Part shown: positions 21,201 to 53,693 of the stretch, one piece after another
Layout: the number at the start of each line of letters is the position of its first letter
Numbering within the stretch: position 1 is the stretch's first letter
Source of the DNA: a virus
DNA: 57,969 nt
Strand: one strand, 5' to 3'
Virus record (IMG/VR): IMGVR_UViG_3300021400_000219
Location: 1 to 57,969 of that record
The notes under the pieces: model-generated
Seen by the model: only the letters and a program-made list of their open reading frames with translations
Database searches by the model: none
What the model was told of the DNA's origin: nothing
Translations under genes and position numbers: made by a program

Positions 21201-24200
21201 AGCACAAGCTGGGAAAACTTACTATGCACGAGTGGAGGTTAATGGTCAAGTCAATTATTCTCCTGTAGATGTTACTGCAGAAGTTGTGGGAACAGACGTT
21301 TCTACTTATTATGAAAAAGATAATGATGAATATATTTTAACCTCTGATGTTGTTGCTCAAGCTAATAAAACTTATTATAATCGTTCAATGCAAAATGATG
21401 AAGAAGTTTTTACTGAAGTAACAGATATCATTTTGCCAGTAGAAGGTTCTAATGTTAAAAATTATTATGAACAAGTTACTACTCGCACAAAAAATGCAAC
21501 TGAAGTATTTGAATGGAGAGCGACTCCTGATAATGCCTGGGCTACTATTTTAGAAACTCGCGGAGTAGATATGCAAGCTGAGGCTCGTAAAGCTTGGACA
21601 GATTTAGTAGCATGGTTTGCTATTAATAATCCAAATGCCGCAACTAATGAATTACTTCCAGAGCCTGTCACTTATGGTACTTATACTTTCAAGGGTTATA
21701 CTTCACGTGCAGATAGATTAGATATCAATGGTAATCCTATGCCAGTACATGCTTAGGGTAAAAATGGCGTACCTAAATCTATTTTGGCAGGTTTAGCTAT
21801 TTCTGATTATAATGGTACATATACAAGAGATACAAAAGAATATCGTATGGCCAAAATGTTACATGAATGTGAAGACCATTTAATTATGGATGAAATTGTG
21901 TTCCATTATTTATTTATAGAGCGTCATGCTTTAATTGATAATGTTGCAAAAAATACATTCTGGCATACAGAAGATTTATAGCATTGGTCTATGATTAAAG
22001 ATTATGATAACGATACTTCGGATGGTAATGACAACTCTGGCCATTTAACTTTAACCTATGGTTATGAGGTTTTAGATCATGTTCATCATGACCCTCGTGA
22101 ATCATTTGTTTTTAATGCTTCTTCTTCAGTTTGGTTACATTTTATTGAAGGTTTAATGCCTGCACGTGTTCGTGTGTATTAGGCTTTAGATACAAGTGAA
22201 ATTGCGGCATGGGACGCAGAACCTTATTTAAATATTTTTAATGAATGGCAAAGTAAATTACCAGAAAGAGTTTGGATTGAAGATTATTATAGAAAGTATT
22301 TGCGTCCATTAGAAGTCTATAATGCTACTCAATTCTTACCGATGTTAGAGGGCGGGAAAAAGACATATCAAAGAAAGCAGTTTGAAACATATCAAGAGGC
22401 TTATATGTCTTCTGAATATTTTGGAAGAAAATGTCAAAGTTCTTTAATAGATATACGTGCTAATGGTAAAGATATTTATGAAATGAAATTTCCTATAAAA
22501 ATGTATGCAGATTGTTATATTCGTGCTGCCGCAGGTTCTGGTCATGATCCTAATGTCCGTGAAAGATATAAACGTGGTGAAATAGCGCAAATATCTTTAC
22601 CAGTTCGTGGCGATGCCAATGATATGACAACTTATTTTTATTTAGCTCATTATATTACTTCTTTGGGTGGTATTGAATAGTTAAAACCTAAAAAAGTAGA
22701 TATTAGTGCAGCCTATAGATTAAAAGAATTTTCAATGACTACTATTGGTGATGAATCTTATTTTGTTAAAACAGAAGATTCTTCTATTGTTGATGGTAAG
22801 AAATATTATATACCTACATATAATCCAGTAGCATATCCAGAAGAAGAGAGTTTAACAGTTTATTATGAAAAAAATATAAATAATGAATATGTTCTTACTC
22901 AAGATTCAGCTATAGACACAAGTAAAACATATTATATTTTATCTTCTTATTCATTAGTTAGTGAACCAACTGTTGCTAATTTATCTCAATATTTTGAAGA
23001 AATTATTTCTGGATAGAATTTAAATTTAACCACAGCGTCATTTAAAGCAAATCGTATGTTAGAAAAATTAGTAGTACAAGATTGTCCTAATATTGCTAAT
23101 TCATTAGATTTGTCAGCTTGTACTAATTTAAAATATTTAGATATTAGACGCAGTGGTTTTACAGGTATTATTTTAGCTTCTAATGCTCCTACTGAAACTT
23201 TATTATTAAATGATCCAACTACATTATCATTTAATAATTTATCAAGAATTAATACATTTGAAGTTGGTTATTCTCGTTTAAATACTTTATTTTTAAATAA
23301 CATTGATAATAGTCCAGGTTTAAATAGTAAAACATTAGTATCTGGCGTTACTTCTCAAACTGATATTATTTCATATAATAATTAGGAAACTTAGAGACGC
23401 AGATTATTAAATTATAATTTATAGAATATACAATGGCAATTAAATGATGCAAATGATATTGATTCTAATTTAAATATAAAATTATTAGATGAATTATTAA
23501 ATCAAGAATTAAGTACTCCTTATTCTGGTGATAGTAAAATTCCTTTCTCTTAGGGATTATCAGGTTCTTTAATAATTAATGAAAATGCTTACTCTGGATC
23601 TGAACCATTAACTATTTATAATAAATATGTAAAACAAGATGTATTTCCTAATTTAGATATTATATTTACTGCGAATAATTCTAAATTATATAATATTTCT
23701 ATTTTAGATGGTAATGGTTTAGAAATTTGGCGTAAAAAAGCAGCTTCTAATTATACTATTACTAGCACATTTTTATCTTCTGGACCATTAGGTTCTTATT
23801 ATGATTTAAATGATGTTACAGTTAAATTACCAACTGCTTCACACACTTTTACATTTACTAATACTTGGTCTATTACAGATGCAGATACTGGCGTAAATAT
23901 TGGAATTATTAATAACGCAGAACCTATTTATAATACTCCATTATCTCAAAATATTATTATCACTCCTATTTTTAATGAAGAAATTCGTTAGTATACCGTT
24001 AAATTTATGAATGGTGATTCAATTATAAATTAGGATAATTTATTATATGATTATGGAACAAAAATTAATACTATTATACCTTCTATTATTCCTAGTAAAA
24101 ATGATGATAATTTAGATATTTATGAAACATATGCATTTTTAGGTTATTCGTTAATACCAACTGCTACTACTGCTTTAACATTTACAGATAAATTCGAAGT

Positions 24201-25059
24201 TAATGCAGATTTAATTTATTATGCAGTTTATACAGATGTTATTAATACTAAAAATTCTATTAATGTTAATTATGATAATTTTAATTATAAATTAGAATCT
24301 GCGGGATATGTAGATAGTAAAGATAGTTCTTTTAATATTACTACTGGATATACAATATCACCTAAATAGGGTTTGATTTTAACTGGTAAAATTACTATTC
24401 CAGCTTATTATAATGGATTACCTATTATTAATATTACAGGTTTTGGATCATCTTAGTCAGCTACTGCATCTACAATTCAAAGAGAAATAAAAGGTATTTT
24501 CTTTGAGGAAGGTACTAAAATTAGAGTTTTTGATAGTGGTGCTTTTGCTAATATGCCTAAATTAAAATATTTAGAGATTCCTGATAGTGTTCGAGAAGTA
24601 GGATCTAGGGCTTTATAGAATACTAATTTAAAATTAACTGATACAAAAAATAATAAAATTTATTATTTAGGTTCTGAGACTAGTAATATTTATAAACTTG
24701 GTACATAGGCTTTTTCTAATTGTATTGATGGTGATTGTGAAATTTTATATATTGCACCTTCTATTTCACAATTTGAATTAGCACAACCTACAGACTGCGT
24801 TTTTGGTAATTTTAATTCCGCACATAGTTTAACTACTATTTATATTGGTTATGAATACACTCCTTCTTAGTTAGATACTTCTAATTTAGAGAGACATCCT
24901 TTTAGATTAAATCCAAATTTACCAAGCACTTTATAGCAAGTATGTTTATATATTCCTAATGGAAAATCCATAGATGGATTACCATCTTGGATAAATCCTT
25001 ATTGGTATGATACACGTTATCAAGTAGATGTATTAAGTGTTAAATATGCTTCAATTTAA
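18298..25059 (+). CDS. Giant multi-domain ORF (about 2253 codons if TAG is sense). It has an N-terminal region with a Gly/Ser linker, a lectin or jelly-roll-like segment, a higher-GC enzymatic-looking domain and a C-terminal BspA-type leucine-rich-repeat region
   Basis: AAAGGAG ribosome-binding site plus ATG at 18298. Ten consecutive track ORFs (18322, 19456, 20308, 21079, 21784, 21991, 22300, 22735, 23056 and the stop before 25084) are all in frame 1. I read every junction and found only TAG. The first TAA is at 25057-25059. This could still be more than one protein if TAG terminates in some contexts. Confidence 0.5.
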
Positions 25060-25083
25060 TGTAATAAAGGAGATAAATAAAAT

Positions 25084-25299
25084 ATGAAAAAATCTATTTT
25101 ATATGAATATTTAGGAACTAATGGTATAATTCGTTCAGGGGTGTTTTTAGAAGGAATTTATTCAATTAAAAAAATAAATTTAATTGCAGATGTTGGAAAA
25201 CAATTAACTAAAGATAATAAAACTTTTTGTTTTTCTGTTATAGTCCCAGAGAATGAAGTATCTGAATGGTATGAAGTTCCGGTCAAAAATAATTAATAA
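25084..25299 (+). CDS. Small hypothetical protein (70 aa)
   Basis: AAAGGAG ribosome-binding site plus ATG. Matches track ORF 25084 and ends at a TAA TAA double stop. Confidence 0.5.
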
Positions 25300-25325
25300 A
25301 TAAATTTTATTTTTAAATACAATAA

Positions 25326-25359
25326 AAGAGTGAGAGAGTAATATCTCTCTCACTCTTAA
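25326..25359 (+). terminator. Perfect 12-bp inverted repeat hairpin (agagtgagagag / ctctctcactct); terminator or RNA-processing site
   Basis: Direct reading. The downstream tail is AT-rich but not a clean U-run. Confidence 0.4.
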
Positions 25360-25387
25360 TATTATAAAGAAAGGATGAAACTACTGA

Positions 25388-27673
25388 ATGATTACTTATT
25401 TAGATAAATCTAATGCGTAGAAATATCATATCCTTTTTGATAAAGCCACAAAATTATTAAAATCAGCGGCTCCATCAGAATTAGAACAAAGTTTTCCAGC
25501 TAATTTTACTTGGGATAATTTTAAAATTGGTTCTTTAAATGAATACTTTGGTTATTTAGATCATATTTTATTGGCAGCTGCGGGTGGCAATAGTCAAAAT
25601 TTAAATACTGATTAGACTCGTTTTTATTTAAGATTACCTTTAGATGAAGATATTTTAGAAATTAATGCAGATACTCGTGAAATTACTGTTCCAAGAGCAT
25701 TTGCAAATCAAGGTATTGGAGTTCAAGGTGATGAATTAGCAGAAACTTTATATTTCACTATTGATAGATTCTTTGATCATAAGGATTTAGCAAATAATGA
25801 AATGCAAATCGCTATTTAGTGGGAAATAACTCAAAATGGAGAAACTGTTTAGGGTATTAGTCGTAACTTTGGCAAAGATATTGAATCCATTCCAGGAAAA
25901 ATTATTTTTGGATGGAATATTGGTAGTGAATTAACTCAAGATTCAGGCACTATTCGTTTTGCTGTGCGTTTTTATGAAGTTAATTCTACAACTCATAAAT
26001 TTGTTTATAGTTTAACAACTTTACCTGCAATGGTGGTTATTCAACCAACTTTAAACTTTGATGTAATTAATGAAGTTATTATAGATAGAAGTAATGATGT
26101 AACTAGTAATATTCATACTTCTGGTATTTATGATGTTGGTATTCCTTTACCAGCAGAACCAATTATTACATCTGAATTAAAAGTAGTATCACCAACTCCT
26201 AATGTTAATGCACCTCGTATTATTGATTTAGATTCTAATAATGAAGTTAAATTAAGTATCGGCGCTTAGCCTGGAGATAATGGTATTATTACTTACGAAT
26301 GGAAATCTCGTTTATATAATTCTACTTAGCAAGATTATGAATAGTCTTGGATATTTAATGATACTATTAATAATAATGCTGTAGAAGATTATCAAGAAAT
26401 AACTACTACATTAAATCCTGATTTTATTTATTATATAAAAGATATTGATTCAAACCCAGCAACTTATAGTCTTTTAAATTTTGATTTATTAGAAGAACCT
26501 TATGAATATAGTTCAGTCGTTGTTGGCTATGATGATGAAGAAAATGAAATTTATAACTATGGTTATAAAAAAGCTGGAACAGAAGCTGATGTTATTCAGG
26601 TGTATGAAAAAGTAAATATTGCAACAGTTACTGCTGCTGGCAAATATACTGTTGATATTAATGCTCGAACTTTAGTTAATACAACTCCTAAACACTTAGA
26701 TGATTCTTTAACTATTACAGTTCCTGCTCCTCGCGCACCTATTATAACCATTCCTGATAATTATAATGTTACTGGAGAAGGAAATAATCAAGAAATTCAT
26801 TTTGTTTTTGAAAATACTAATGATACTATTAAATTAGTTCCTGAATCTATTTTAGGAGAGGCTGCAGAGGGATTAACTGAAGCAGAGGTTGGAGATTATC
26901 AAAACAAAGTAACTTCATCTTATTAGTGGCAAAAACGTTCTGGAGAGTCTTCTTGGAATGATATTACAGAAACAGTTGATGATATTGTAACTGTAAAATC
27001 AGATTTTGATAGTTTTATTGATTTTGATACTAGCAATAATCAATTAACAATTAATTCTTTATCTTCTGAAGAAACTATAGATGATTATTATCGTTTTATA
27101 GTAACTAGCGTTAGAAATGGAGTTAGCAAAGATAGTATTTCTGCTCCTTATCGTATCACTAATGCACCTAAAAAACCAGTATTAGGTTTTATTGACGGCT
27201 CTAATTTTAATGAATAGAATTATCAATCTTCTAATTCTGGAAAAACTCAAAACTTTATTAATGGTAAAGTTTATTCTATTGATATAAATGCTTCAGCAGA
27301 TATTCCTTGGGAAAAATTAACTTATATTTGGGTTAAATCTAATATTGAATTAGAAGATGAAAAATCTAATATTGTTGATTTACCAAATACAATTAATGGA
27401 TCTACCGCGATTGAAGGTTATGAAATTGCTGATATTAAAGCAGCTTTATTAAAAAATGAAGCTGATTCTGAAAACCCTGTTAATTTTAATCCTTATAATG
27501 GTAATGACACAATTGTTGCTTCTGGTCAAGTAGACACTAGTGTTTTAATGAATGGTAGAGCTTATCAAGCAGGTTTTACATGTACTAATACTGGAAATTA
27601 TTATTGTATTATTATTAATGAAGTAAATAATCATATTGCGGTTAACGTTAGTCCATATATTGCTATTGTTAAT
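25388..27673 (+). CDS. Virion structural protein (about 761 codons)
   Basis: GAAAGGATG ribosome-binding site region plus ATG near 25388. Frame 2 continues through track ORFs 25964 and 26600. I verified it codon by codon from 26924 to the TAA at 27671-27673. Confidence 0.55.
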
Positions 27674-27700
27674 TAATCCATTTAGAAGGAGGCGTTCTAA

Positions 27701-28285
27701 ATGGTCTTTAAAGATTTATTGAGAGAAATTTCCAACGCAGCTATTAATACTACAATTACAGCTAATGTTCCAAGTAATAAAAAATTATATACAGTTGATT
27801 TAAATAGTCGTTCTATTGATAGTCCATCTATTATATCTGTTGAAAATGAACATTATGCTGAAACTGTTTACTTTTTAATTGATCGTTTTTATGGTAATAT
27901 GGATTTAGCTTAGACTAATTGTGTAATTAATTATGTAATTATAGATTCGGAAGGCAATGAAAAATATTATACTTATGAAGTACCTTATTGCGATTGTCGT
28001 TCTATGGAAAATAAAATTATTTTACCATGGTGTATTTCATATTTAGCTACTTAGTCTTCTGGAATAATTAGATATTATATTTCATTTTATTTAATGAATG
28101 AAGAAAATAAATATACTTATAAATTAAATACTACAATTGCTTCTAGTCAAATATTAATTACTTTGCCTAGCGATGTCCTTTATGAAGATGAAAAAATTTT
28201 AAAAGATGTTCCAACTCGTGAAGTAATGATTAATCAATTTAATCAAGCTATTGAAGCTGCGCAAATATTTTGGATTGATGTTTGA
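27701..28285 (+). CDS. Hypothetical virion protein (194 aa)
   Basis: GAAGGAGG ribosome-binding site plus ATG at 27701. Frame 2 runs through track ORF 28094 to the TGA at 28283-28285. Confidence 0.55.
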
Positions 28286-28334
28286 CAATTATTAATTTTT
28301 ATGTTAATATAAAATAAAAAGGAGTTCTATATTT

Positions 28335-28556
28335 ATGTTAAGAGTTGATTCTAAAAATGTAAATTATAGTGCGGCCAGTGTTATTAATACACAAGAAGAT
28401 AGTTCTCAAATTGCATATTTTAATGCAAGTAAACATAATGAAAGATGTGATATTTCAATTAATATTGAAAATATTACTACTTATCTAAATAATTTAACTA
28501 TTTTTGAAAATGATCTATCAGATTTTCTTGTTGAAGTAACTTCCACAAATGATTAA
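28335..28556 (+). CDS. Small hypothetical protein (73 aa)
   Basis: AAAAGGAG ribosome-binding site plus ATG. Matches track ORF 28335 and ends at TAA. Confidence 0.5.
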   Translation: MLRVDSKNVNYSAASVINTQEDSSQIAYFNASKHNERCDISINIENITTYLNNLTIFENDLSDFLVEVTSTND

Positions 28557-28580
28557 TTATTTTTCAAATATTTGCTTTAA

Positions 28581-28680
28581 AAATTTTGAAAAGTGATTTT
28601 TGTTTTGGCGAGCGGTTAGGAGGGTCCTGGCCGGCCGCTTTATAATATGCGCGCACGTGTGTGCGTGCAAAATTTTCAAG
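28581..28680 (+). ncRNA. Candidate structured RNA or regulatory element (copy 1). It comprises a conserved 22-nt box, AAAAATTTTGAAAAGTGATTTT, followed by a GC-rich segment with two hairpins
   Basis: This is a GC island in an AT-rich intergenic region. The hairpins are AGCGG...CCGCT and an 8-bp stem GCGCGCAC-gtgt-GTGCGTGC containing one G-U pair. It is a paralogue of 52972-53076 and sits immediately upstream of a strong terminator. No tRNA cloverleaf can be drawn. Confidence 0.3.
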
Positions 28681-28728
28681 GGAGAAAGATATATAAAAAA
28701 TATTTTTCTCCCTTTTTTTTTATATTGG
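28677..28728 (+). terminator. Strong rho-independent terminator
   Basis: AAGGGAGAAA ... TTTCTCCCTT stem followed by a T9 run. Confidence 0.7.
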
Positions 28729-28756
28729 ACAAATATTATTAATAATCTTTACAATC
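28728..28756 (+). promoter_or_regulatory. Possible promoter (TTGGAC-17-TTTACAAT) upstream of the giant fibre gene. It shares a TTGGACAAA motif with 38497
   Basis: Sequence reading only; weak -10. Confidence 0.25.
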
Positions 28757-28804
28757 TTTTAAAGATTTTATGAATAATTCTAAAATAGAAAGGGGTGCTG
28801 AAGA

Positions 28805-31800
28805 TTGGCGCTCTTTAAAATATCTAAAGGGGATTCTAAAAAATTATTACCAGGTAATAATTAGAATCCAAATGTAAAATATGCTAAAGAAGGTTTTGCA
28901 TATTTTACAACTGATGATGGAAAATTTTATGTAGATATAGCAGGTGATGGTTTAACTACGCCCGCAATTATAAGAGATAAAGAATCAGATGGAAATCGAG
29001 TTCCTTTAAATGCATATTAGGCAGATTTTGCTGGAGAAGCGGAATTTGCTAATTTATCTAAAATTAGTTCACGAATTGCTTTTGGAACCTGTACAACCAA
29101 TGGAAATGTAATCAATAAAATTATTAGTATTGATACTAACGAATTATAGACATTAACTAGCGGATCAATGATAGCTATTTACTTTTTAAATGGTAATACA
29201 GCTGTTAATCCAAAATTAGAAATTGATTCAATATAGTATCCAATTTATTATAATTTTACTACTCCAATTGGAGATAGTATTCATTCTTCTTGGGAATCAG
29301 GTTCAATTAAAATTTTTACTTTTATGAAAGGAACAGATTCTAGTCCAGAAGATCGTTTTATTGTTACTAATCCTAATTTTGGTTCTAATCCTATTACAGA
29401 TAAAACTACTGTTTTAGCTAGCAATATGAAAATTTATCAAACTCATAATATTGAAGAATCAGACTTACAAGAAAGTGGTTGGATTAGATTTGCTTCATTA
29501 GATACTAACACTAGTAATTAGATAGGTCAAAAAATTTTTGATTTTAATATTTTCAGAACTTATTCCAGAGGAATACCTGAAACTTATAGTATTAGAGTTA
29601 TTGCAGGATGGTCTAATTGTACTATATTATAGTTAGGCGGAAACGTTGGAACACAAAGAATTACTCAATTTCGTGTATGTAAAGATAGTACGGAAAAAAA
29701 GATTTATTTTGAGCTATATTTATCAATGGATACTCCAACAAATAATAAAATCTATATAAGAACAATTAACTATACTAATAATACTCAATTAACATTTTTA
29801 AATGAAGCCGAAATTAAATCTGATTCAGAATTAGCTACTTGGACTTTACCTTTAAAACAAGCTAGTTTAATTTCAAATGCATCTATAATGCTTTCTTCAA
29901 CTTCTCGAGGATTATTTTTAACAGATTCAACTGAAAAATTATATGGAGCAATTTATAATAATGCTTCTAGTTTATGGGTTGGCGCAACTGCAACAAATGA
30001 AAATATTCATACTGGTAGTTTATGTTTTCATGCAGGTAAGGATACAAATGGTATTATAAATCGTTCAGCATTTTTAGCTGTAGGTAATAATGATACTGCA
30101 ACCACTGCTACAAATTACGTAATTGCTTATGGCTCAGGTGGTGGTCCATCGTAGCCAATATATGTTGATACTTATGGAAAAGTATAGGGTATTACAGGAG
30201 CTATTGCTAATGATACAACTGGTAATGCTGCAACTGCTACTGCGGCAAATATAACATCAACTGATAATGCTATTGTACGATTTGATGGTACTCAAGGTAA
30301 GTTTTAGAATAGTCAAGCTTGGGTTAATGATAATGGAGGTATTACTTCAAATAGCGCTATTACAGTAGGCGCAGGTTATTTTATAATTAAACCCTTTTCT
30401 TCTGAATATGATACAACAGGCACTCATGATGGAATTAAATTTTATTTTAATCATGATAGAGAAAATTATAATCCAGATACATTAATTACTTATTATTCTT
30501 TATAGGCTACTAATTTTTATGGAGTTTTAAAAGGAAATGCAGATACAGCTACAGCTTTGTCTTCTACTGGAACTACTGCTTAGTTTTGGCGTGGAGATAA
30601 TAGTTGGAGCAGTATTTTATCTGGAGCAGGAGCAAGAATTACTTTTACAGACACAGTAAATAATCGAACTATGTGGATTGGTCATCAGTCTTCACAAGAG
30701 TGGATGGGTTTATATGAAAGCACTTCTAATAATACTAAAGTATTAATTGCTCGTAATACGACTTCAAATAAAATTGGTATTGGCACGGCAACTCCAGATG
30801 CAGATTATAATATTACTTTATAGAGTTCAGTTTATTCAACTGATTTTATAACTGCTAAAGGTTTATATTTATATGGTTCAATAGGTTCAGATAAAACTAC
30901 TCGACAAATTACAAGTGATGATTTAAAAAATATTTATTTTAAAATCAATGGTAATATTTCATTAGTAGTTAAAGATGATTTGGTTGGTCCTGGATAGTCT
31001 TATTCTAATCAAATTAATTTAGGTGCTACTGAGCGACTGTGGAAAAAAGCATTTATAAATCATTATTATTTACCAAGACCTACAAATGGAGAAAGCACTG
31101 ATTGGAATACTCGCATTGCAACTACTGAAAAAAATAGTTTTACTATTGAAGAATTCGGAACATCTACACTTAATAAACCAACTAATCATTGGTATTATGG
31201 TTTTATTGGGCGTGGCTCAGATCAAGATTATTTATTACAAATTGGTTTTGGAGAAACTACTACAAGAGTAGTTTATAGAGCTAAAATTTCTAATAACTGG
31301 TCTGGCATGGCATTATATGATATCCCTTCTACTGGGCCAGTTGCTATTGGCTCTGGGGTAAAGCCTATTTATTTAGATAGTAATGGATTTTTACAAGCTT
31401 TTGCTTCTACAATAGGCACTACAACTAAACCAATTTGGATAGATGCAGGAACTATTAAAGCTGGAAGTTATGAATTAAAAGCGACTGTAGACAATGGTAC
31501 ACAACATTATTTAACTATGTATACTGCTGATGGAAGAACTATTGGCCCTGCAAGTAGTAGAACTTCAACCGTTTTATTATCTTCTACAGTAGCTGATACT
31601 TTGAAATTAACATCAACAGCAGATGCTAATTATTTAACATACGTAAGCAGTAAAGGTACTTGGAAAACTGGTATGGGCACCAATTCCAATGAATATTGGA
31701 TCTATTCTAATGATTTATCTAATTGGCGTGTTGCTATAAATAATTCTAATTTCCATTTACGTTCTTCAAGTTATTAGAAAAATACTACACCTTCTTCAAA

Positions 31801-34800
31801 TGTTGCTGGGGCAGGTATTTATACAAGAGATATTGACGATAACTATATTTGGGTATTACGAGGCTATAAAAATACTTCTAATACAATGGGTGCTTAGTTA
31901 TATACTTATGGACATAGCACAAATGATACTGGCACAAGCACTTTTTCAATTTATAGAACATCTACCCCTGATACTTATATAAATTGGACTGGTGGAAAAA
32001 TTGGTAATAGTATTTATCCTTGGGCAAATGCAACTTATAATATTGGTTCAAATGATTTAGCTTGGAATCAATTACATTTAACTTATGATTCTTCATCTGC
32101 TAGAAATAAAGGTATTCGTTTTATGAATGCTGGAACTTTAGTAGGTAATATAGGTGCAACAGCACAAGGATTAGGTATTTATGGTAATGGTCATTTATAT
32201 TTAAGACCTTCTTTAACTGAAACACAAGGTATGGAAATTACTTCTACTGCAGTTCAACCAGCAACAAATCATGATATTAATTTAGGAACAACTTCGTTAA
32301 GATGGAATTAGATTCATGCTAAATCTTATTATATTGAAGATACTCGCAATGAAGATTTAACTGCAGCTACAAGTGATAAAGCTATAAGATTTTTCTTTAG
32401 TAATAATAATATGCCAAACACTCAATGGTGGTCTGGTATTCATGTTCGAGGTTGGAATGGTGGATATTCATCATGGGAATTAGTAGGTCCAGCTGGTAAT
32501 GTTGATCAAAGAACTACTCCATTATATATAAAAACAAGTAATATTAATACTGATTGGGGCGAATGGCGTCCAATTTTAGATAGTTATAATGGTGTTATGC
32601 GTTTTCATTATGGAGGCACTGGAACTACAACAAAAATATTAATTACTATAAATAATACAAACTCTTGGATGGCATCTTTTACTTTAAGATTATATTAGGG
32701 ATATCAAGCTACAGATTTATAGATTAGCGGTTATAATTATAATAATACAGATACTCCTTGGTCTTCACCTCAAGCTATTGTATTAGGTTCAACTGCATAC
32801 GATGGCCCATTAGTATATTTTGGATATACAGATACATAGAAATTATGGGTAGCTGTAGATGGCGCTAGGTATACAGGCGTTGATGTTTTTGGCATTACTA
32901 ATGGTTATACTCAAATCAATTTAAAAGATTTTTGTACTATTACTAATGTTTCTACTTTACCTGGAACACTTCAAAAAACAGTAAGAGCTTATAGTCGTTT
33001 AACTCATAATGTTGTAAGCGATACTGGTGATATTACTTTACATAATTAGCCAGGAACTTTTGCTTTTTCAGGAAATGGAGATCCTTGGAGTGGAAATGAT
33101 TGGGTTGGATTTTAGGTAGGAAATAATTTAGATAAATTTTAGATTGTTAGAGTTAATTCAAATAATTTACTATTCCGTTAGAATGATAGTGGAGGAGTTA
33201 ATACTTCTTGGGGAACTTGGGAAAAAATATTAACAGATGTAAATACTTCATGGGTAGCTTGGACTCCAGGAACTACTGCAGGACCTTAGGCTAATTTATC
33301 ATTAAGTGGAACTAATATTCAAAGTGCCGCGATTCCTTCTGCTAGCACAACAGCAAGTGGTATTGTAACTACTGGAGAATAGTCTTTTACAGGTAAAAAA
33401 ACCTTTAATTGGTTGCGCGTTGTTAATAATTCATCTAATAATGCTGATGATGCACTTTTTTATATTGAAAGTAAAAATAGTAATGATTGGGCTTAGAAAA
33501 TTCTCTTAGATACTTTTAACTATGGTTTATATATTCAAGGAACCGGAACTTCATTGTTAAAAGTTGGAACAAATAATAATTTTACTGTTAATTCTACAAC
33601 TGCAGCTTTTGGATAGTAGGCAAATCCTATGACAATAACAATGCATGGACGATTAGTTATAGATAGAACCGATATAACCTATACAGCAGGAGATGAGGGT
33701 GAATAGGGACAATCTATCCCTCTTATTAACATAAAATATAAAAATACTGGCACGGGTGTTTATGATCAAAATATACTTAATGCCATAAAAACAACAGAAA
33801 CTGGTGCCACTGTAGATGCTACAACGATAGCGCTAACTTCAGGTGGTGGTAGTCTGATTTTAGCTGCCGGAGAGCATATGAACGGATTATTAACAAAGAA
33901 TGGTCCTTTTAAATATGGAAGTGAAACATTAATTTTATCTTCAGATTAGAATGTTGAAATGATGACTGGTTGTCATAACTCAAATGGAACTTATACAGCT
34001 CGCACAAGAGTTGGTTCGATCGGAATATAGATGCATTTTCCTTATAATAATTTTAATAGAAACCTTCAACCTAGCGCAGCGGTAGAAAGAGGAATGTTTT
34101 TATATGGTGCTAATATTATAACAGAAACACCTACAGTAACCAGTGATGAAAATCAATTTGTAGCTGGAACTTATTATCGCATAGAAAAAACATCAGGTAA
34201 TCGTATTTACTATGCAGCTACTATGTATAATACTAATAATGATTTTAAATATTTAAGTTTAAAAATGCCATATAATCAAACTTCATCATTTTTAATGTGG
34301 ACAGATGGATATGTTGGTAACCGCATAATACCCTGGGCTAATAATAATTATGAATTAGGATCTTCAGATTACAAATGGAAAGAAGTGCATGCAACAACAT
34401 TCTACGGCACTTTATCTGGGACAGCAACTACTGCGAATAATTTAAAAACGACACTTATGACCAATGCTTCAACACCGGTTTTCGTTTTAGGAGCCACTGG
34501 AACGTCTGCGAGTACTTCTCAGGCTGTATATAAGGCATATCGTACTTCAACTGCTCAAGTATATTTTAGAGGAGATACTGGTGTCTTAATGGGTGCAGCT
34601 TGGAATGACTATGCAGAATATCGTCAAGCAAAAAATAATATAGAAATTGCTCCTGGCAGAGTAGTAAAAGAAGTTGGAGATGAAACATTAGAATTAGTGA
34701 CTGAAAGATTACAACGAGGATGTTCAATAGTTTCTAATACTTTTGGTATTAGCATTGGTGAAAGTGAAACTAATAAATTGCCATTAGCAGTATCTGGACG

Positions 34801-35023
34801 AGTGTTAGCATATCCATACGAAGATAAAGAAGAATTTAAAAATCATATTGGTTGGCCAGTTTGCTCTGGTCCTAATGGAACAGTAAGCATTATGACTGAA
34901 GAAGAAGAAGAAAAATATTCAAGCCGAATCATTGGCACCATATCCTCTGTTCCAAGTTATGAAGTATGGCACGGGGGGGCTGATGTGGTTGTTGATGGGC
35001 GTGTTTGGATAAAAGTGAGGTGA
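28805..35023 (+). CDS. Giant tail-fibre or receptor-binding protein (about 2072 codons; N-terminus MALFKISKGDSKKLLPGNNQNPNVKYAKEGFAYFTTDDGKFYVDIAGDG...)
   Basis: GAAAGGGGTG ribosome-binding site. A frame-2 TGA sits at 28799-28801, then a TTG start at 28805. Track ORFs 29324, 29726, 31307, 32123, 32411 and 34031 are all in frame 2 and joined only by TAG. The terminal TGA is at 35021-35023. Confidence 0.55.
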
Positions 35024-44112: not shown

Positions 44113-46385
44113 TACTCCATCACTCCTACGTGTTTCACGCGGTGGTGAACTTCATCTTGTTTACCTAAATTAAAAGCAGTTTTATAATTGCCTGTTAAAT
44201 AACCAGTTACTCTACGCAATTGCTGAATATTCTCACTACCGCAGATAGGACAAGCATCATTTATCTCTCCTTGAAAACCGCAATCTAAACAAGTGTCACT
44301 TGGAACATTAATAGCAAAATATGGAATATCTTTATCCATAGCATAATTTACAATTTGTTCTAATGCTTCTGGATTATGAACAGCCGATGCATCTAATTCA
44401 ACATAAGTAATACATCCGGCTTGAGAATATCCTGTTAATTGACTTTCAATATCAATTTTTTCAAAAGGACTTAGCTCATGCCAAACAGGAACATGCATAC
44501 TATTTGTAAAGAATTCTTTATCTGATACAAATGGAATTTCGCCATATTTTTCTTTAAACTTTTTCATAGCTGTATAACAAAGATTTTCAGCAGGAGAGTA
44601 ATAAACTCCAAAATTAAGCTTATATTTTTGTTTGAATTCTTTGCAACGCGTATTGAATAGTTTTTCAATACGTTTAGCTAATTCCATACCTTCTGGAGTT
44701 GTATGATCTTTACCAATAAGAATCTATAAACATTCTGCCAGACCTAATTGTCCAAGACTTAGTGTCCCATGCTTAAGCGCACTAATAATTCCTTCTTCTG
44801 GCTTATATCCAAGCATTAAACCATTTTCATACATAAATTTTGCAGAAGCAGGACTTTGTGAAGCAATATAATTAAAACGTTCAATTAACATATCTTTAGC
44901 TTCATGAATTTTTTGGTCAAGATTACGAAGAAAATAGTCAATTAATTGTTGCTGACCTTGTTCAGTATTAATAAAACCATTACCTTTATCAAAAGTCTAT
45001 TTAGCTTTCATAGCTAATGTTGGAAGGATAATTGTTACAGGACAAATATTACCGCGTCCATCTTTAGTTTGTGGATTTACTCCTGGCTCTGCATTAATAT
45101 CTGCGCCATTAGCCGTGCGACAGCCCATTGTGCTGAAGTAGGTTTTAGGGTCATTAATATCATACCCCGCATTACCCGACCAATCAATATTAGCATAATT
45201 AGGATAAAGGCGTTTTGCAGTAGATTTTAGAGCTAATTGATATAAATCATAATTAGGGTCACCAGGTTCTCTATTAACACCTTTCATGCATTGGAAAATA
45301 CCACAAGGGAAAATAGAGGTTTTGTGTAATTTACCTAGCCCTTCAAGAGAAACTTCTAATAAAGCTTTAGTTACCATTCTAGCTTCTGGAATAATACAAG
45401 TACCATAATTAATAGAAGTAAAAGGTAATTGATTACCACTTCTGGATTGCAAAGTATTAAGGTTATGATACATACCTTCTACAGCTTGATGGACTTCTTT
45501 TTCTGTCATATCCATAGCATATTGATAAGCAGCTTGATGAGATTCATCATTTGCTTCAATATCATCAAAAGATAATTCTTTCGGAATAGAATCTAAATAA
45601 TCTTGATCTGTAACGCCTTCAAGATATTTTAATCCATCAATCATATGCTTACGAAAACTTTTACGCACATATGGAACCATAGTCCAATCTAAGTGTGTTG
45701 CGGATACACCACCAAATTGTTGTAAACTTTGAAGCTAGAAAATAACTGCTACTAATTGAAATGCTGTATTTACAGAACCAGCAGGACGTACATCTGTTTG
45801 ACGAGTATTAAATCCATTAGCAAGCAAATCGTCAAAAGGAATAGATAAACAATTATGATTTCCTACATAATAATTATCAAGGTCATGAATATAAATCATA
45901 TTACCTTCATGATTTTCTCTTGCTTTTTTAGAAATTAAATAATCTAATGCTAATTTTTTAGTAACAACTGCTGCTGCTTCTCCTGTGCGTCCACCAAAAG
46001 AATGCTCATCTACATTAGCATTTTGATTTTGAACATCAGTAGCTTCTAACTTTTCACGAATAGCATCAATAAAATCATGCTAATAGTTACGAGCTACTTC
46101 TTTTTTATATCTATATCTTATATAAGCTCTTGCAACATCAGGGCGTTCAGAGCGCATAAGATATTCTTCAACTAAATCTTGAATTTCTTCTACGGAACAA
46201 CTATTTCCATCTTGATATTTAAAATAATCTTCAATATCATAAGCAATATCATATGCAGTATCATCTTCATAAAGTTTACCATCTACCTCAATAAATGCTG
46301 CATTTATTGCATCTATAATTTTTTGTTTATTAAAATCGACGATATCACCATTTCGTTTAATTACAAGCAATATTATCTCCTCCAT
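44112..46385 (-). CDS. nrdD: Anaerobic (class III) ribonucleoside-triphosphate reductase (about 757 codons)
   Basis: Track ORFs 46080..46385 (ATP cone, VIKRNGDIVDF...), 44997..45680 and 44112..44687 are all in one frame (the distances are multiples of 3). The C-terminus has the Zn ribbon CLDCGF...CPICGS and the glycyl-radical motif RRVTGYL. The TAATG overlap with nrdG is present. Confidence 0.85.
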
Positions 46386-46445
46386 CTAAATATTGACTCA
46401 AAAAAGAGTATTCTACTATATTTAGTTTTTTAGGCATATTAATTA

Positions 46446-47045
46446 TTACGTGTTGTCCTTAGACTGCTCGTAGTGTTTAAGCTTTTTAAGTGTTTTATAA
46501 TGTTCCAATTCTCTTTTAATAATTTGTTCACTTTTATATAGATCTCTGGTATTATTATTCACTAGAATGTAATAATCAAAATCTATATATTTAAAATCTT
46601 TTAAATCTGAATCATATCTTCGTAAAATTTCTTTTATATCAGGATATTTTTCTCTTTGTAAGCTGCGAATTAATCTTTCTCTATCATCGCATCTAACATA
46701 TACTATTTGAGTATTTAAATTAGGATTTTTAAGTAAGGTTCTAGCAGCGGCAGGATTAGCACTTAAAACATTAATTTGAGAATAATCCAAATCTTCATGT
46801 CGAGTGCCATAATACCATCCATTAAAATTTTGCCATTCGGCAAGTTTTCCATTATCTATTTCTTGAAGAAATTCTTCTCTGGAAACAAAATGATAAGGAT
46901 GACCTTCTTTTTCTCCTGTTCGTTTAGGACGAGAAGAAACTTGAGGAACTACATGAAAATCATTAGGGTGTAACATTAATAAATGGTCAATAATAAAATT
47001 TTTACCAGAACCACTTTCTCCAATAAAAACAAGTAAATCTTTCAT
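46446..47045 (-). CDS. Guanylate-kinase-like dNMP kinase (199 aa)
   Basis: Track ORF with a P-loop GESGSGKN and SSRPKRTGE...YHFVS, a guanylate kinase-type motif. It has no internal TAG. Confidence 0.7.
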   Translation of the reverse strand: MKDLLVFIGESGSGKNFIIDHLLMLHPNDFHVVPQVSSRPKRTGEKEGHPYHFVSREEFLQEIDNGKLAEWQNFNGWYYGTRHEDLDYSQINVLSANPAAARTLLKNPNLNTQIVYVRCDDRERLIRSLQREKYPDIKEILRRYDSDLKDFKYIDFDYYILVNNNTRDLYKSEQIIKRELEHYKTLKKLKHYEQSKDNT

Positions 47046-47472
47046 ATTAAATCCTTTATTTGTAATTCATATGGTGAAATATAAAACATTTCTGGTTTAT
47101 AATCAGCATATTTAACTGTATTTTTTTGGTAATATATTTTTATATTTAAGTTTTGTTTTAAACAATACCAATGATATTTTACATTTGCATATTTTGGATT
47201 AAATCTATATTCTTCGCCAGGTTTAACAATGATATCATTTAGTATCATTTTATCAAGAGGTATTTCTACATAAGCGCCATAATCTCCAATAACTATTCGA
47301 GAATACCCCTTAGCAATAGGGTTATGAAATAAATCATATATTCCACAATTTAAATTACCATTTATATCCCACTCATTAGGAAGTTCATCAAAATAAATTT
47401 TTCTCTATTCTTGTGATATAAGAGACGGAAGTGGTTTATAATGATATTTATTTATACATTCTTCAACAGTCA
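47042..47472 (-). CDS. Hypothetical protein (about 142 aa)
   Basis: Track ORF 47042..47248 is extended upstream across one TAG to an ATG that overlaps the DnaE stop (TAATG). Confidence 0.45.
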
Positions 47473-50400
47473 TTATTCGCCACCTTCTCCTTTATATCTT
47501 TCAATTTGAAGAATTAAATCTCCATCTTTATCAATGTCTACAATATGATATAATTGATGCCCCCCAGAAGTTGCATATTTTTTAGCTATAAAAGTATCTC
47601 CTGATCGGACACCTTGCACCATAATCATACTGCCTCTATTAAACCAACTAGTTTCTTGACGATGTTTTATCCCATCTTCGCCTATTTCAGAAATAGTTTT
47701 ATCAAATAAAGCAAAATATTCTTTTCTAAATTTAACATTTACTACTCCATCAGTAGTTAAAATGGTTGCAATTCCTTTAGTTTTATTTTTAGCAATGCAA
47801 GTGCCGCAAATTTTAAAGAGTTTAAACATATTTATAGTTTTTTTACCTTTTGTAAAACTCCTGTCTATAATTGGTTCTTCTGGTAATGAATAAAAATTAC
47901 TTAATCCATATTTACCCATATTTACAGTAGATAATTCATGAGGATGATGATAAAAACAAAGAACTTCCATTTCCCAAGAAGAATAATTTCCAGAAGCATA
48001 TTTATCCCAATCTAATTTAAAGATTTGGTCATTTAATTGCTGAAGAACTTCATTACCAGATTCTTTTAACCAATCTCTAAAAATATCCATTACAGATTGA
48101 TAATATTTATCCCAAACTTTCGCTATTAAAATATTATTTCCTGAAATTATATCGTCTTTATCAATTTTAGTTAAAAAATCTATTGCGCGAGTGTCTAATT
48201 GATAATAACCTGGTAATTTATCATTTTTACAAACCGCCTTTAAATATCTATTAAATTCATAAACACTAAAAGCAAATTGTCTTTCTTCTGTATCTCTTGG
48301 AATTAAATTCATTTTATTTAATGTTGGCATATTTTGAAGTGTTAAACGAGATTTTTTATCACAAGTTTGCCAGATAAACCAAGCCATTGCTAATTTTCTA
48401 TCCATCATTTGATCAAAAGCGCCTGCTTTAATTAATGACACCATAGATTGCTTTTTTGGGCTAATCTTTTGATAGAAATCTTTAATAGATATATATGGTC
48501 TATTTGCAATAATTTCACGAACTAAATCATCATTAACATTCAATAATGCTTTCATTCCAAATAAAATTTGATGATTTTGTATGTCAGGTTTAAATCCAAA
48601 ATCAGATTGATTAATATCAACTAAACTTACATTAATACCAGCATTAATAATTTCATTTAACGCTTTTGCGATTTTACCATAATCAGTGCTTACAGTTTTA
48701 TCATCTTCAGTATCACTATTTTCATCTTCTAATGAACCACTGTTTACAACTAAACAAGCAGTATCCCAATAAATTGGGTCAAAAGAAGTTGCAAGATATA
48801 AAGTTTGAACACCTACAAAACTATATGCTAAACTATGAATAGTAGAAAAACTATATCCCATCTGCGGACCTGCGCCATATTTCCAAACATATGCACCTAG
48901 CTGAGGACTTTTTGCTTGTCCAAGAACCTTTTGATGTAATGCAGGAATTTTATCCATTTGTTTTTTACCTACTACTTTACGAGCAGAGTTTGCTTCTGCT
49001 AATGTAAATCCGCAAATATCTTTATCCATTAACATTAACATTAATTGTTCTTGGCTTGGTGGTACGCCATATGATGATTTAAAATAAGGTTCTAAGGTTT
49101 TTTGTTCATTAGGGGTTAATCCCCAACGATTCATTTCATCATACCATAATTGAATATTATTTTTAAATTTAAAATATTTATCAATAGGACGTTCTTCTTC
49201 TTCTCCCATAAGACGCAATAACCCATTTGCGTCACTCATTTCGGTAATTGAACGAGGCCGCAAACGTTTAGCTGCTTTAACGCCTTCTTGAGAATCGAAT
49301 TGAAAAATATTTATAACTGAAACGTTATCAAGTGCATCCCAAATTCTTTCATCATCTCTTGGTAAAACATTAGGATGCAAATATTTATCATAGACTTCTT
49401 TTAAAGATAATTCAGGTTCAATTTGACCATCTTGCTATAAAAATTGAATAGTTTGAACAATTTTATCTTGAACTTCTGTTACCAAGAAATCATATTTAAC
49501 ATTGCCCATATATTCTATGTCATGAAGATTCCATTGAGTAATAATTTCACCCTTTGGAGTTTTCATAAAAGCGCAATGTTCAAATGGGTCATCACTAAAT
49601 AATACAATGCCAGAAGCATGAGAAGAGCGTTTGTTATGAATACCTTCGATAGCAATGATAATTTCAGCTAAACCTGGATAATTATTTACTTCACGAACGA
49701 ATGAAGCTACTGGTTTTCTTCCTTTTTCAAGATTACCGAATAATACATCTTTTACAGGCCATAAAAATCCTCGTTCTTCTGGCACTAAAGAAGCCATATA
49801 TTGAGCTTGATCTACATCAATACCCTCTGAATAATCTTCACTTCTATAACCTCTACAGGCTGTTAAAATTGCAGATTTAGTAGTTTCAGTTCCAAAAGTA
49901 GCAATTCGTGTACATCCAAAGATTTTTGCCCATTCTGGCACATTATCATTAAATGTAGCACTTCTCTCTTGAGCAATTTTATTAATAATAGTTTTAATTT
50001 TAGAAGGACAAACGTCTATATCTATATCGCCAAGTTCTACACGATCTTCATTAAGATATCTAAAGAAAGGTAAATCCCATTCAATAGGGTCTAACTGAGT
50101 AATACCCATTAAATAATGATTTAAAGCTGCACAAGAAGAACCTCTGCCTGCGCCAATAGTAGAACCACATTCCCAAATTAAATTAATATAATGCTGAAGA
50201 GTATTAGGATATCGAAACATATTTGTTTCAAGCTTTTCACTAATAATACTTTTTACGCGAGCCTCTTCTTCTAATTCAGTAAAATATTGTTCAGCCTTTG
50301 GAGAATCACAAATTCCCAATTCATACATTTTTTCAATACATTGATTTACCCAATAACGATTTTGAATATCATCATCATGTAACATTTGACTTAAATGAGG

Positions 50401-51405
50401 ATATTTAGGATTATCTTCTCCAACACCATTAACAGTTATCCAATAAGATTTAGGATATTCTTTTACTTCTACACTTGGTACATCCTATTTATGGAATAAA
50501 GAATATCTTGAAATTTTATTATAAATTTCTAAAGAATTTTTCATAACTACTGATGCAAATTCTTCATCATTATCAAAAGTAATTGTTAAATTCTTTAATA
50601 CTTCATCAGGAGACATAAGATAAGCATATTCATAAAATAAATCTACTTCTCGTTCTCCTTCTTTAGAATTAAGATATGCTTTATGGACTTGTCTATCTTC
50701 TTTAGTTAAATAATGACTATCTGTTCCAACAGTCATTTTAATGTTATATACATTAGCAATAGAACGAAGAATCTGATTTACTCTAATTTGATCTTTAGAA
50801 GGTGCAGGCGCACATTCAATATAAAAATCATCACCAAATAAATTTAAACAAAACTTTAGAAATTCTTCTATTTTTTGATAATAAATAGTTGCATTAGAAA
50901 TATCATCTACTTCTATACAATCTTTATAAGCTATAGCTAATTGACTTAATTCTCCGCCAATGCAAGCTGTTGTTGCAATTAGATGACCAGGAAATTTATT
51001 TACTACTTCTACTAACTCAGATTTTAAAGTAGGAACTCTTTCCATTTTTCTATCTACATAAGAATTCATCCAAGCGCGAGAACTTAATTCTCGTAATGCC
51101 CTATGACCGATAGCATCTTTAGCAATTAAAATAAAATGATAATATTTTTGACCATTATCTCTAGTATCAGTTAAATAAATTTCATTACCTAAAGCTAATT
51201 TAAAATCTGGATTTCTTTCTTGTACTTTAAGCATATGCTTTTCTGCAGCTATATGAGCAGATAATACTTCATGATCAGTAATGGCTATTCCCATTAGTCC
51301 CATATCTATAGCTTTGTCAATAAGCTGTTCTGGTGTATTTATACAATCTACAAGCCGCAGATTTGAGTCGGTAGTATGGTTATGATTATTAAAATATGTA
51401 TTCAT
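47473..51405 (-). CDS. dnaE: DNA polymerase III alpha subunit (DnaE-type; about 1310 codons)
   Basis: Three track ORFs (50485..51405 PHP domain; 49435..50385 polymerase core ...GSTIGAGRGSSCAALNHYLMGITQLDP...; 47473..49380) share one frame and are separated by TAG codons, cta on the + strand at 50485-87 and 49435-37. Confidence 0.9.
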
Positions 51406-51461
51406 TTACTACCCCACTTTTTTATTTTCTATAATTATTATAACATATATTATTATATGTA

Positions 51462-52667
51462 TCAATTTTTTTGAATTACAACTAATTTTTTTGCAGCGCG
51501 TGTAATTCCTGTATATAAATATTTTTTTCTTTCTACTTGGCCCCTTGGCCATCCAGATTCTTCACAAAGTAATACTTTATCCCATTCGCTACCTTGAGCT
51601 TTCCATACACTAATAGCATAACCGAAATTAGCATGTAATGGTAAAGCAAATTTTTTATGTAAACGATATTCTTCTTTTGGATTTAAAGATGGGTTTCCTG
51701 TTAATAATTCATTATAATCAAATGATATCATATCATATTGTTCATCATCATTATCGCCTGAGATAGTGGCTGTTAAAATGGGAACTGAAAAAGAATGCCC
51801 ACGTACCCAATAAGGATAATTCCAATGAGAAATTGTCATTTGTTTTATTGTTCCAATTACACCATTAGTTAAAGGATTTTGCTGATTTGATAAAATTTCC
51901 CATTCATTATGAAGATTAATTATTTTATCTCCTACCATAGGTTCATTGGGTAATTCTTGAGCTGCTCTCATTTGATTATTAAGAATTAATTTATTACGAG
52001 TTGTAGCACATAAAACTTGGTCAGCCCATAATAGCATAGATGTGGATAACTCGGATTTATGGAACATCATAACTTGTTCATTTTTACAAGGAAAAGTGCT
52101 TAATGGATTACCTTGTCGCACATGCATTGATAAGCGAATAATTTCACTTTCTTGCGCTTGTCTCATTATTTCATCTAAAAAAATATGTGGATTATCTAAT
52201 ACATGGTTATCAGCATCTTCTCCTGGCGTATCTGAGATAGGAGATAATTGTTCAGGGTCTCCACAAGCTAAAATATAAAAATTATGTTGACATAATAGAT
52301 TCCACATTTTCCAAGGTAACATACTAACTTCATCTACTACAACTATTTTTATTTCTGATTCCATTTCAAATGGAGCTTTTGGAACAAAAACATAATTACC
52401 TGTAGGCATTCTACGTGCATGATATAAAAGCTTATGTGCTGTAGTTGGATTAGGACAATTTTTTTGTTTTAATACATTTGTTGCTTTTCCAGTATAAGCA
52501 ATATATCTTACTTCATTTTCTTGTACACCTAAAGCATCAATAATAAAACGAACAAGGGTTGATTTCCCTGTTCCCGCAAATCCTGCAATTACAGTATATT
52601 TAAATCCTGCCTGATATCTTGCAACAGCAATCTACAAACCTTCTTCTTGCTTTTTAGTTAATATCAT
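51462..52667 (-). CDS. SF1 Dda/RecD-like DNA helicase (about 402 aa)
   Basis: Track ORF 51462..52409 is extended upstream across one TAG (cta at 52632-34) to the ATG at 52665-67 and then a TAA. The Walker A motif IAGFAGTGKST and ...VVVDEVSMLP are present. Confidence 0.8.
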
Positions 52668-52926
52668 TTTTAGTTACCTTTTGTCCCATTGGACGGCATA
52701 CCCAACTAATATACTCTTGAAATTGAACATTATATCTACTTTTAAAATAATCAATTATTTCATAATCAGATAAATAATCAAAACAATATATTCCATACAT
52801 TACTTTAAATTCAGTGTCATATTTTTTTTCTATTACATCAAGTAAGTTCCAAAAATCTCGTCCATTATACATAAATTCACTAAAATCATACTTATCTAAA
52901 CATTTTATATTATATTCTTTATCCAT
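52654..52926 (-). CDS. Hypothetical protein (about 90 aa, MDKEYNIKCLDKYDF...)
   Basis: An ATG with a GGTGGA ribosome-binding site lies inside track ORF 52654..52974, whose own start is a TTG. Confidence 0.45.
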   Translation of the reverse strand: MDKEYNIKCLDKYDFSEFMYNGRDFWNLLDVIEKKYDTEFKVMYGIYCFDYLSDYEIIDYFKSRYNVQFQEYISWVCRPMGQKVTKNDIN

Positions 52927-52945
52927 ACATCCACCTCTATTATAT

Positions 52946-52974
52946 ATTATAACATTTTTTAATTTTTGATTCAA
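52946..52974 (-). promoter_or_regulatory. Sigma-70/SigA-type promoter TTGAAT-17-TATAAT driving the - strand replication operon
   Basis: - strand reading: TTGAATcaaaaattaaaaaatgtTATAATatataatAGAGGTGGAtgtATG. Confidence 0.5.
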
Positions 52975-53682: not shown

Positions 53683-53693
53683 CTAATCTCTCC

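Follow-up and report, generated by a model that had tools for sequence, protein, structure and literature searches.

What is a short, strongly folding GC-rich segment doing between two late structural genes of an AT-rich phage, and why does the 22-nucleotide (nt) box that precedes its hairpins recur exactly once, in the replication region? The segment belongs to IMG/VR virus record IMGVR_UViG_3300021400_000219, of which positions 1 to 57,969 were analysed as one strand; we call this whole stretch the window, and its G+C (GC) content is 29%. It is the reverse complement of the last 57,969 bases of the 174,221-bp sheep-rumen contig SHIW14-1 scaffold_111, from an uncultured rumen phage of ~174 kb in which TAG is recoded. 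The box, AAAAATTTTGAAAAGTGATTTT, has exactly two matches in the window, both on the plus strand, at 28579-28600 (copy 1) and 52973-52994 (copy 2), and two matches were found in 0/100 shuffled sequences. A preliminary description had read these as two equivalent copies of one structured element resembling a small RNA gene, with the box as its leader. Our analysis favors a different answer, to which we assign a probability of about 0.45: copy 1 would be the folded non-coding 3' part of a short self-contained transcript (promoter, open reading frame (ORF), A/U-rich box, hairpins and terminator) and a candidate regulatory RNA, possibly antisense to copy 2.

Copy 1 as the probable structured tail of a short transcript

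The minimum-free-energy fold of copy 1 consists of two hairpins and a terminator, with z-scores of -6.5 for 28579-28722 and -8.1 for 28601-28722; the region folds to -54 kcal/mol on the plus strand versus -40 kcal/mol on the minus strand. The box is unpaired in this predicted fold. Hairpin 1 (28607-28639, plus strand) includes GGCCGGCC, which was correctly placed in the element and occurs once in the window, at 28629. Its consensus over eight sequences comprises an outer helix CGGUU/GGCCG, a variable 5-nt bulge, an inner helix GGY/GCC and a CCUG loop; its U-G pairs make the hairpin valid on the plus strand only. Hairpin 2 (28648-28669, plus strand) is the 8-bp stem GCGCGCAC/GUGCGUGC with one G-U pair, exactly as first described; it lies within a 25-nt perfectly alternating purine-pyrimidine tract, and a natural C-to-T variant preserves its pair as U-G. 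The intrinsic terminator (28678-28722, plus strand) has a stem at 28678-28714 of 15 pairs with a 7-nt loop, followed by T9. It had been called a textbook terminator, and the count agrees (1 site found versus 0.1 expected).

The compositional part of the preliminary description needs narrowing. Roughly 65% GC over about 80 nt was an overstatement, the content being 62.5% over 64 nt (28607-28670) and 54-59% over 70-80 nt. The element does rank first in the window for GC contrast with its flanks (0.35, with copy 2 second at 0.31), but as the sharpest compositional island it has a competitor, since its absolute GC content ties with that of a coding island at ~18680. The alternating tract that forms hairpin 2 (window 28641-28669, with equivalents in the orthologous loci L251, L295 and L298) is built of GC, GT and AC steps, measures 25-29 nt with a length that differs between orthologues, and is of a kind prone to Z-DNA formation and slippage.

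Orthologues of copy 1 were collected from homologues of the neighboring 73-amino-acid (aa) and 194-aa proteins: L251, on a roe-deer contig, and L253, L254, L255, L260, L295 and L298. A query of IMG/VR with the 194-aa protein found nothing. Between 28587 and 28636 the window is 96% identical to L251, whereas the flanking late genes are ~60% identical. Over 60 aligned sites copy 1 has 2 differences from L251 and 4 from L253, compared with a synonymous divergence (pS) of 0.44-0.53 in the adjacent ORF, and the box and hairpin 1 change ~10-fold more slowly than neighboring synonymous sites. The first 15 nt of the box (AAAAATTTTGAAAAG) are kept in all orthologues of copies 1 and 2 save for one A-to-G change; its 3' half is variable (GTGA, GTAA or GCCT).

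All copy 1 orthologues fold into the same three hairpins (z from -4.8 to -8.1), and RNAalifold applied to the eight copy 1 sequences returns a 35-pair consensus with three hairpins and many G-U pairs. The share of paired cells is 97.5% versus 45-67% when the partners are slid, and the covariation score of 0.18 (vs 0.146) was reached by 0/500 shuffles. Variable hairpin positions are limited to the bulge. Elsewhere, one-sided changes preserve pairs (C-G to U-G, U-G to C-G) in a way that suits the plus strand only, and two-sided changes occur in the terminator, where in alignment A3 pair 142-178 is GC in five sequences and AU in three, and pair 145-175 is AU in seven and GC in one. L253 has a fully different terminator stem that the T run still follows. 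One earlier structural argument failed: the outer pair that looked compensatory between the two copies (A-T in copy 1, T-A in copy 2) does not hold in orthologues, as AGCGG/CCGCT is changed to AACGG in L251 and L253 and lacks any equivalent in L295 and L254. This comparison shows that copy 1 is under strong purifying selection. Its low divergence beside a far more divergent ORF, the three-hairpin fold of eight sequences and the retention of promoter, element and terminator in L254, which has lost the ORF (see below), argue that it is kept as a plus-strand RNA.

The transcript that would carry this RNA is predicted to start well upstream. A sigma-A/sigma-70-type promoter lies at 28282-28310 on the plus strand (TTGACA-17-TAATAT with a TG before the -10; 10/12 matches in the scan), its -35 overlapping the 194-aa gene at the stop codon. 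The promoter recurs in 7/7 orthologues, with TTGACA in the corresponding position and then TAATAT, TAAAAT, TATAAT or TAGAAT. The coding part of the unit is a 73-codon ORF (28335-28556, plus strand) with the Shine-Dalgarno sequence AAAAGGAG and no in-frame TAG. Its orthologues have a ratio of non-synonymous to synonymous divergence (pN/pS) of 0.3-0.56 relative to the window; the 73-aa protein belongs to no Pfam or PHROG family, and its AlphaFold model (predicted local distance difference test score, pLDDT, of 68) has no fold match. The copy 1 box follows this ORF, ~270 nt downstream of the promoter, and wherever the ORF exists the element sits between its stop codon and the terminator. The ORF lies between promoter and terminator in 7/8 orthologues. 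Only L254 has a purely non-coding unit, of ~170 nt, in which box, hairpins and terminator follow the promoter after ~25 nt, with no ORF. L261, which is more distant, lacks the entire unit and shows nothing but terminators there.

Because the box is internal to the transcript and the promoter lies upstream of the unit, the box is neither leader nor promoter, contrary to what had been proposed. A scan for sigma-70-type promoters (-35/-10 with 16-18 nt spacing) listed none inside the box on the plus strand, at either 28579-28600 or 52973-52994. The small RNA proposal is otherwise supported in part for copy 1, which looks like a component of an RNA-producing unit with hairpins and a terminator, is far better conserved than the sequence around it, folds strand-specifically and in L254 directly follows the promoter. 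We hold with fair confidence, on this comparative evidence, that copy 1 is the conserved structured RNA tail of a short transcript.

Phage morons are reportedly promoter-gene-terminator units inserted between phage genes. The unit likewise has its own sigma-A-type promoter and its own intrinsic terminator, lies among late genes and is absent from L261; by this layout and distribution it is a moron-like insert between late structural genes. It differs in that ~140 nt of it form a conserved structured non-coding tail and in that one relative keeps the RNA part only.

Copy 2 and the protein-coding ancestry of the element

The key fact, which the preliminary description could not see, is that this sequence has its homologue in related phages in the 3' end of a protein-coding gene, read on the opposite strand. 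We used nhmmer and alignments to compare 80 loci, each surrounding a relative of the helicase that adjoins copy 2. A homologue of the box plus GC region is found at the same syntenic spot in ~45 of these helicase-linked loci, between an upstream gene and the promoter of an operon for a small protein, the helicase and DnaE. Read in the helicase direction (the minus strand of the window), the homologous stretch is the 3' end of a 107-190 aa ORF, here called gene X, with the C-terminal motif LLRP...TENPNQKxDLEIF. The box is the reverse complement of codons for K-S-L-F-K-I-F, and translation of the GC-rich part yields a stretch of Pro, Ala, Gly, Arg and Thr. No Pfam or PHROG family matches gene X. 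Relatives have the 3' 75 nt of the gene in common but unrelated N-terminal parts, and the codons of the C-terminal motif are almost devoid of synonymous change. Members of the family sit ~300-1000 nt upstream of the helicase in L171-L250.

Copy 2 shares with copy 1 the box, scattered matches and the block GTGTGTGCGTG. Its GC-rich part (52995-53076 on the plus strand) is, by homology and synteny, a relic of the 3' end of gene X, which reads on the minus strand; the LLRP and NRNPELKSLFKIF pieces have come to lie in different frames through a frameshift. The claim of two equivalent structured copies does not hold. The fold of copy 2 has z = 0.04, with 101/200 shuffles folding as well, copy 2 has no terminator and no Rfam hit up to E = 10, and it is a gene relic on the other transcription strand. 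Compared with the roe-deer phage, its GC part is the least conserved stretch (84%) of a replication module that is otherwise ~95% identical. A promoter of the operon for a 90-aa protein, the helicase and DNA polymerase III alpha lies next to it at 52946-52974 on the minus strand (TTGAAT-17-TATAAT with TG); the box abuts its -35, overlapping it with its first two bases, and equivalent operon promoters directly follow gene X in relatives.

The comparison shows copy 2 to be a decaying in-place relic of gene X. By the same homology, copy 1 is an old duplicate of the gene X 3' end, and its sequence was not invented as RNA. Fragments resembling this 3' end occur in three contexts: the syntenic site, the late region and a region of transfer RNA (tRNA) genes and ROOL RNA (L001, L267 and L330).

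Several readings of the parent family were considered and rejected. What remains on the minus strand is a 33-codon relic ORF at 52940-53041 (MSTTAAQGHYNRNPELKSLFKIFESKIKKCYNI), without a Shine-Dalgarno sequence and probably not a gene. Its ATG is ATA in L252 (on the roe-deer contig) and L331, and its differences are mostly non-synonymous; the minus-strand ORF of copy 1 lacks an ATG, a stop interrupts the frame in L180, and in L173 the box is read in a different frame. The lost ATG, the frameshift and the stop codon led us to reject a small peptide gene on the minus strand. An RNA fold common to the family is not seen either: RNAalifold on 30 homologues of the gene X region gives 0 pairs, and a hand-drawn CGGUU/GGCCG stem is paired in 66% family-wide versus 65% in shuffles. 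The gene X codons GAT TTA GAA ATT TTT show no synonymous variation in seven lineages, while helicase synonymous sites in those loci are saturated. A small RNA (sRNA) target site as the cause of these frozen sites was ruled out because intact-gene-X genomes hold one copy (a single 20-mer or variant box).

The third context is rich in other RNAs. Full-length ROOL RNA (332 and 339 bits) and skipping-rope RNA are found in related phages at L001:1566-2154 (minus strand), L001:5993-6103 (minus strand) and L267:1204-1808 (minus strand), those of L001 within an array of 23 tRNA genes under repeated TTGATT-17-TATAAT promoters. L001 and L267 each have a copy of the box element at a distance of ~0.5-1 kb from ROOL. 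GC-rich, structured-looking stretches without an Rfam match stand beside box-like elements at L001:265-385 (minus strand) and L330:650-1100, the former between a promoter and tRNA-Thr.

A candidate antisense RNA

The two copies are co-oriented, and the genes around them are transcribed oppositely: up to ~41.4 kb the plus strand carries long TAG-rich structural (late) genes, and beyond it the minus strand carries TAG-poor replication genes. A copy 1 RNA would therefore be antisense to minus-strand RNA at copy 2. The box has 22 nt of perfect complementarity to that RNA, ~45 nt before the start of the 90-aa/helicase operon. A duplex scan of both strands of the 58-kb window singled out one partner for the box, the copy 2 minus-strand RNA, at -32.6 kcal/mol; the background is -7.6 +/- 2.2 kcal/mol and the next best site reaches -19.8 kcal/mol. 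No terminator lies on the minus strand between the upstream 201-aa gene and copy 2. With copy 2 as the only outstanding partner and no terminator before it, a trans-antisense role is plausible.

We propose that the unit would yield a regulatory RNA, either as a stand-alone sRNA or released from a 3' untranslated region (UTR). Its single-stranded box would pair at copy 2 with read-through transcripts of the upstream replication operon, and pairing might alter the processing, stability or read-through of those transcripts. That the RNA is an antisense regulator of a replication-module transcript is the leading guess only. The fuller scenario is, in our estimate, unlikely: that the tail of a replication gene was duplicated into the opposed late region and became an RNA antisense to its parent locus, where it would govern the transcript that leads into the helicase-DNA polymerase operon, at the level of stability, processing or read-through, and would have outlived its decayed parent.

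Exact matches outside the window are few. IMG/VR holds one other, L001, in a related 183-kb phage, and among GTDB genomes the exact 22-mer leads to the roe-deer phage contig JAFTFU010000004.1, which carries L251 and L252. Genomes have only one or two boxes each, relatives of the 201-aa protein carry none, and a metagenome scan with an 18-mer gave chance matches only, among the matches listed.

Several observations weigh against a regulatory RNA with copy 2 as its target. The covariation across orthologues resides mostly in the terminator, which has most of the two-sided changes, and hairpin 1 is supported by conservation, not covariation. The structure set comprises eight sequences from ~5 lineages, with the fold derived from those same sequences, and recent recombination, instead of selection, could explain part of the high identity of copy 1 between phages. 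Co-variation of box and target, the key test of such pairing, was looked for and not found: the copy 1 and copy 2 boxes of WILK20 and LIJU20 share only 15 and 12 contiguous nt, and across the four genomes compared a box resembles its partner in the same genome no more than it resembles copies elsewhere. Transcripts from the helicase-operon promoter also lack the target, which only read-through RNA contains. Finally, phages with an intact gene X carry one copy only, so any antisense role is confined to a narrow clade.

Alternative explanations

The alternative that survives best, although we consider it rather unlikely, is that copy 1 acts in cis only, as a 3'-end module that ends transcription and shields the messenger RNA from 3' exonucleases, its box matching copy 2 through shared ancestry. 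Such a module would account for the constant position of the element between ORF stop codon and terminator, for the clearest compensatory changes falling in the terminator, and for the lack of box/target co-variation. A stabilizer needs no set sequence, however, yet the box and hairpin 1 evolve at about one-tenth of the synonymous rate and variable positions are confined to the bulge; L254, moreover, keeps promoter, element and terminator without any ORF to protect.

It is improbable that the box is a DNA-level site to which a single protein of phage or host binds at both copies, such as an operator near the replication-operon promoter with a second site in the late region, the RNA fold being incidental. 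The shared orientation of the copies, the contact of the copy 2 box with a -35 (the position of an UP-element), visible phased A/T tracts and the frozen gene X codons, which hint at nucleotide-level constraint across the family, could all be expected of such a site. But the box has no dyad symmetry or iteron, its distance to the -35 ranges from 0 to ~100 nt between relatives, no promoter lies beside the copy 1 box, and the 3' half of the box differs between copies 1 and 2 in WILK20 and LIJU20. The strand-specific conserved hairpins would also go unexplained. A fixed UP-element role was rejected because of this varying distance. Sigma-54, extracytoplasmic function (ECF)-type and Bacteroidetes-type promoters were compared by eye, and no consensus suits all copies. 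Replication and packaging elements, raised as alternatives in the preliminary description, find no support at the locus: neither copy has tandem or clustered direct repeats that could be origin iterons, the GC skew turns at ~41 kb, away from both copies, and both assemblies end close to window position 1, far from the element, which speaks against a pac or cos site.

That both copies are functionless neutral debris, in the form of recombination scars or short linker homologies left by module exchange, is more improbable again. Copy 2 would fit this account, its GC part drifting, and a gene fragment in three genomic contexts, from a gene X whose N-terminal parts are unrelated and whose 3' 75 nt are common, is what module exchange might leave. 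Copy 1 does not fit: it is a conservation peak (96% vs ~60% in the flanks; 2-4 changes per 60 sites vs pS of ~0.45-0.5), and its fold is kept in all orthologues. Hardly credible is the box as promoter or leader of an independent small RNA gene in two functional copies: read by eye, both copies have TTGnnT 17 nt upstream of GATTTT, with a transcript that would begin at the base of hairpin 1, but GATTTT could not serve as a -10, no promoter was listed inside the box by the scan, the TTG is missing from L001, a copy 2 transcript would meet no terminator and enter the 201-aa gene in antisense, genomes have no more than one or two boxes, and the unit already has a consensus promoter upstream.

If copy 1 is a working RNA, as the candidate-regulator reading has it, it would represent a new, uncatalogued small-RNA family in a large group of uncultured rumen and gut phages. 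It would also offer an unusually clear record of a regulatory RNA born from a protein-gene fragment, with the parent intact in relatives, the relic decaying and the duplicate conserved. If copy 1 is only a 3'-end module, the lesson is one of caution: in an AT-rich phage, a conserved box followed by a GC island can reflect a conserved peptide motif encoded on the opposite strand.

Comparison with known systems

Lambda nut and HK022 put sites consist of a conserved box and hairpin before a terminator, in two copies per genome. Copy 1 has a similar order (gene stop, linear box, hairpin, terminator), and here too there are two copies per genome. Unlike in those systems, copy 2 is antisense to local transcription and has neither hairpin nor terminator; copies 1 and 2 cannot each serve as a sense RNA signal.

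The phage RNAs c4 (P1/P7) and CI (P4) act in trans as antisense RNAs by pairing with short repeated boxes. The proposed RNA resembles them as a short structured RNA whose box is complementary to a second copy in the same genome. It shares no sequence or structure similarity with them, its boxes are direct repeats under opposed transcription rather than inverted repeats in one operon, the box-target co-variation sought here was not found, and any comparable role is putative. P4 CI RNA is named in PMC4825925, which also describes Gifsy-1 IsrK as a dual-function or 3'-UTR-embedded prophage sRNA. Like IsrK, the unit would use one promoter for an RNA that combines an ORF with a structured regulatory part and ends at an intrinsic terminator; there is no homology between the two, and the host here is Clostridia-type, not an enterobacterium.

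Searches against Rfam 15 found no family at the gathering threshold anywhere in the window, and nothing on the elements of L254, L295 and L294. The best sub-threshold match, at 28644-28727 and over the full model, is to the plasmid counter-transcript ctRNA_pND324 (RF00238), with 35.6 bits versus a gathering score of 45. The shared hairpin-plus-terminator layout is generic, and the match leaves the box and hairpin 1 uncovered.

Phage setting and neighboring features

Downstream of the terminator, a promoter-like site at 28726-28755 on the plus strand (TGGACA-18-TACAAT) precedes a tail-fiber gene and is not part of the element. This tail-fiber-like gene (28805-35023, plus strand) most likely starts at TTG 28805, after the Shine-Dalgarno sequence AAAGGGGTG, and the start-region sequence AAAGGGGTGCTGAAGATTGGCGCTCTTTAA is kept in all orthologues. 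Public gene calls begin at ATG 29168 and miss 121 codons (28805-29167).

TAG is a sense codon in the window, where opening it doubles the stop-to-stop ORF coverage. In-frame TAGs number up to 31 in late plus-strand genes and 0-2 in most replication genes; an exception among the latter is a RecJ-like gene (53694-55472, minus strand) with 13. The 58-kb window encodes no suppressor tRNA, and ARAGORN finds 0 tRNA or transfer-messenger RNA (tmRNA) genes in it and 0 in L251 and L252. The phage belongs to a large group of uncultured, TAG-recoded phages of rumen and gut, 100-200 kb in size, in which relatives have ROOL RNA and big tRNA arrays as well. A blastn search of the region gave no match in cultured phages, and the closest cultured helicases are only 36% identical to that of the window.

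The roe-deer phage is ~95% identical to the window in the replication module (46167-54166 vs L252) and ~35-70% identical in the tail/tail-fiber region (22787-30786 vs L251), with a sharp mosaic boundary between the two. Inside the 95% region, ~100 nt at the junction of the helicase and the 90-aa gene (window 52567-52666 vs L252) are only 6-66% identical and may represent an indel or a replaced segment. In several relatives (L177:4114-4995, L178:4496-5011 and L294:1853-2350) an additional ORF separates the small protein gene from a helicase ORF reduced to 315-378 aa, that of the window having 401 aa. In L178 the additional ORF is HNH-like, and the helicase gene may be split or invaded.

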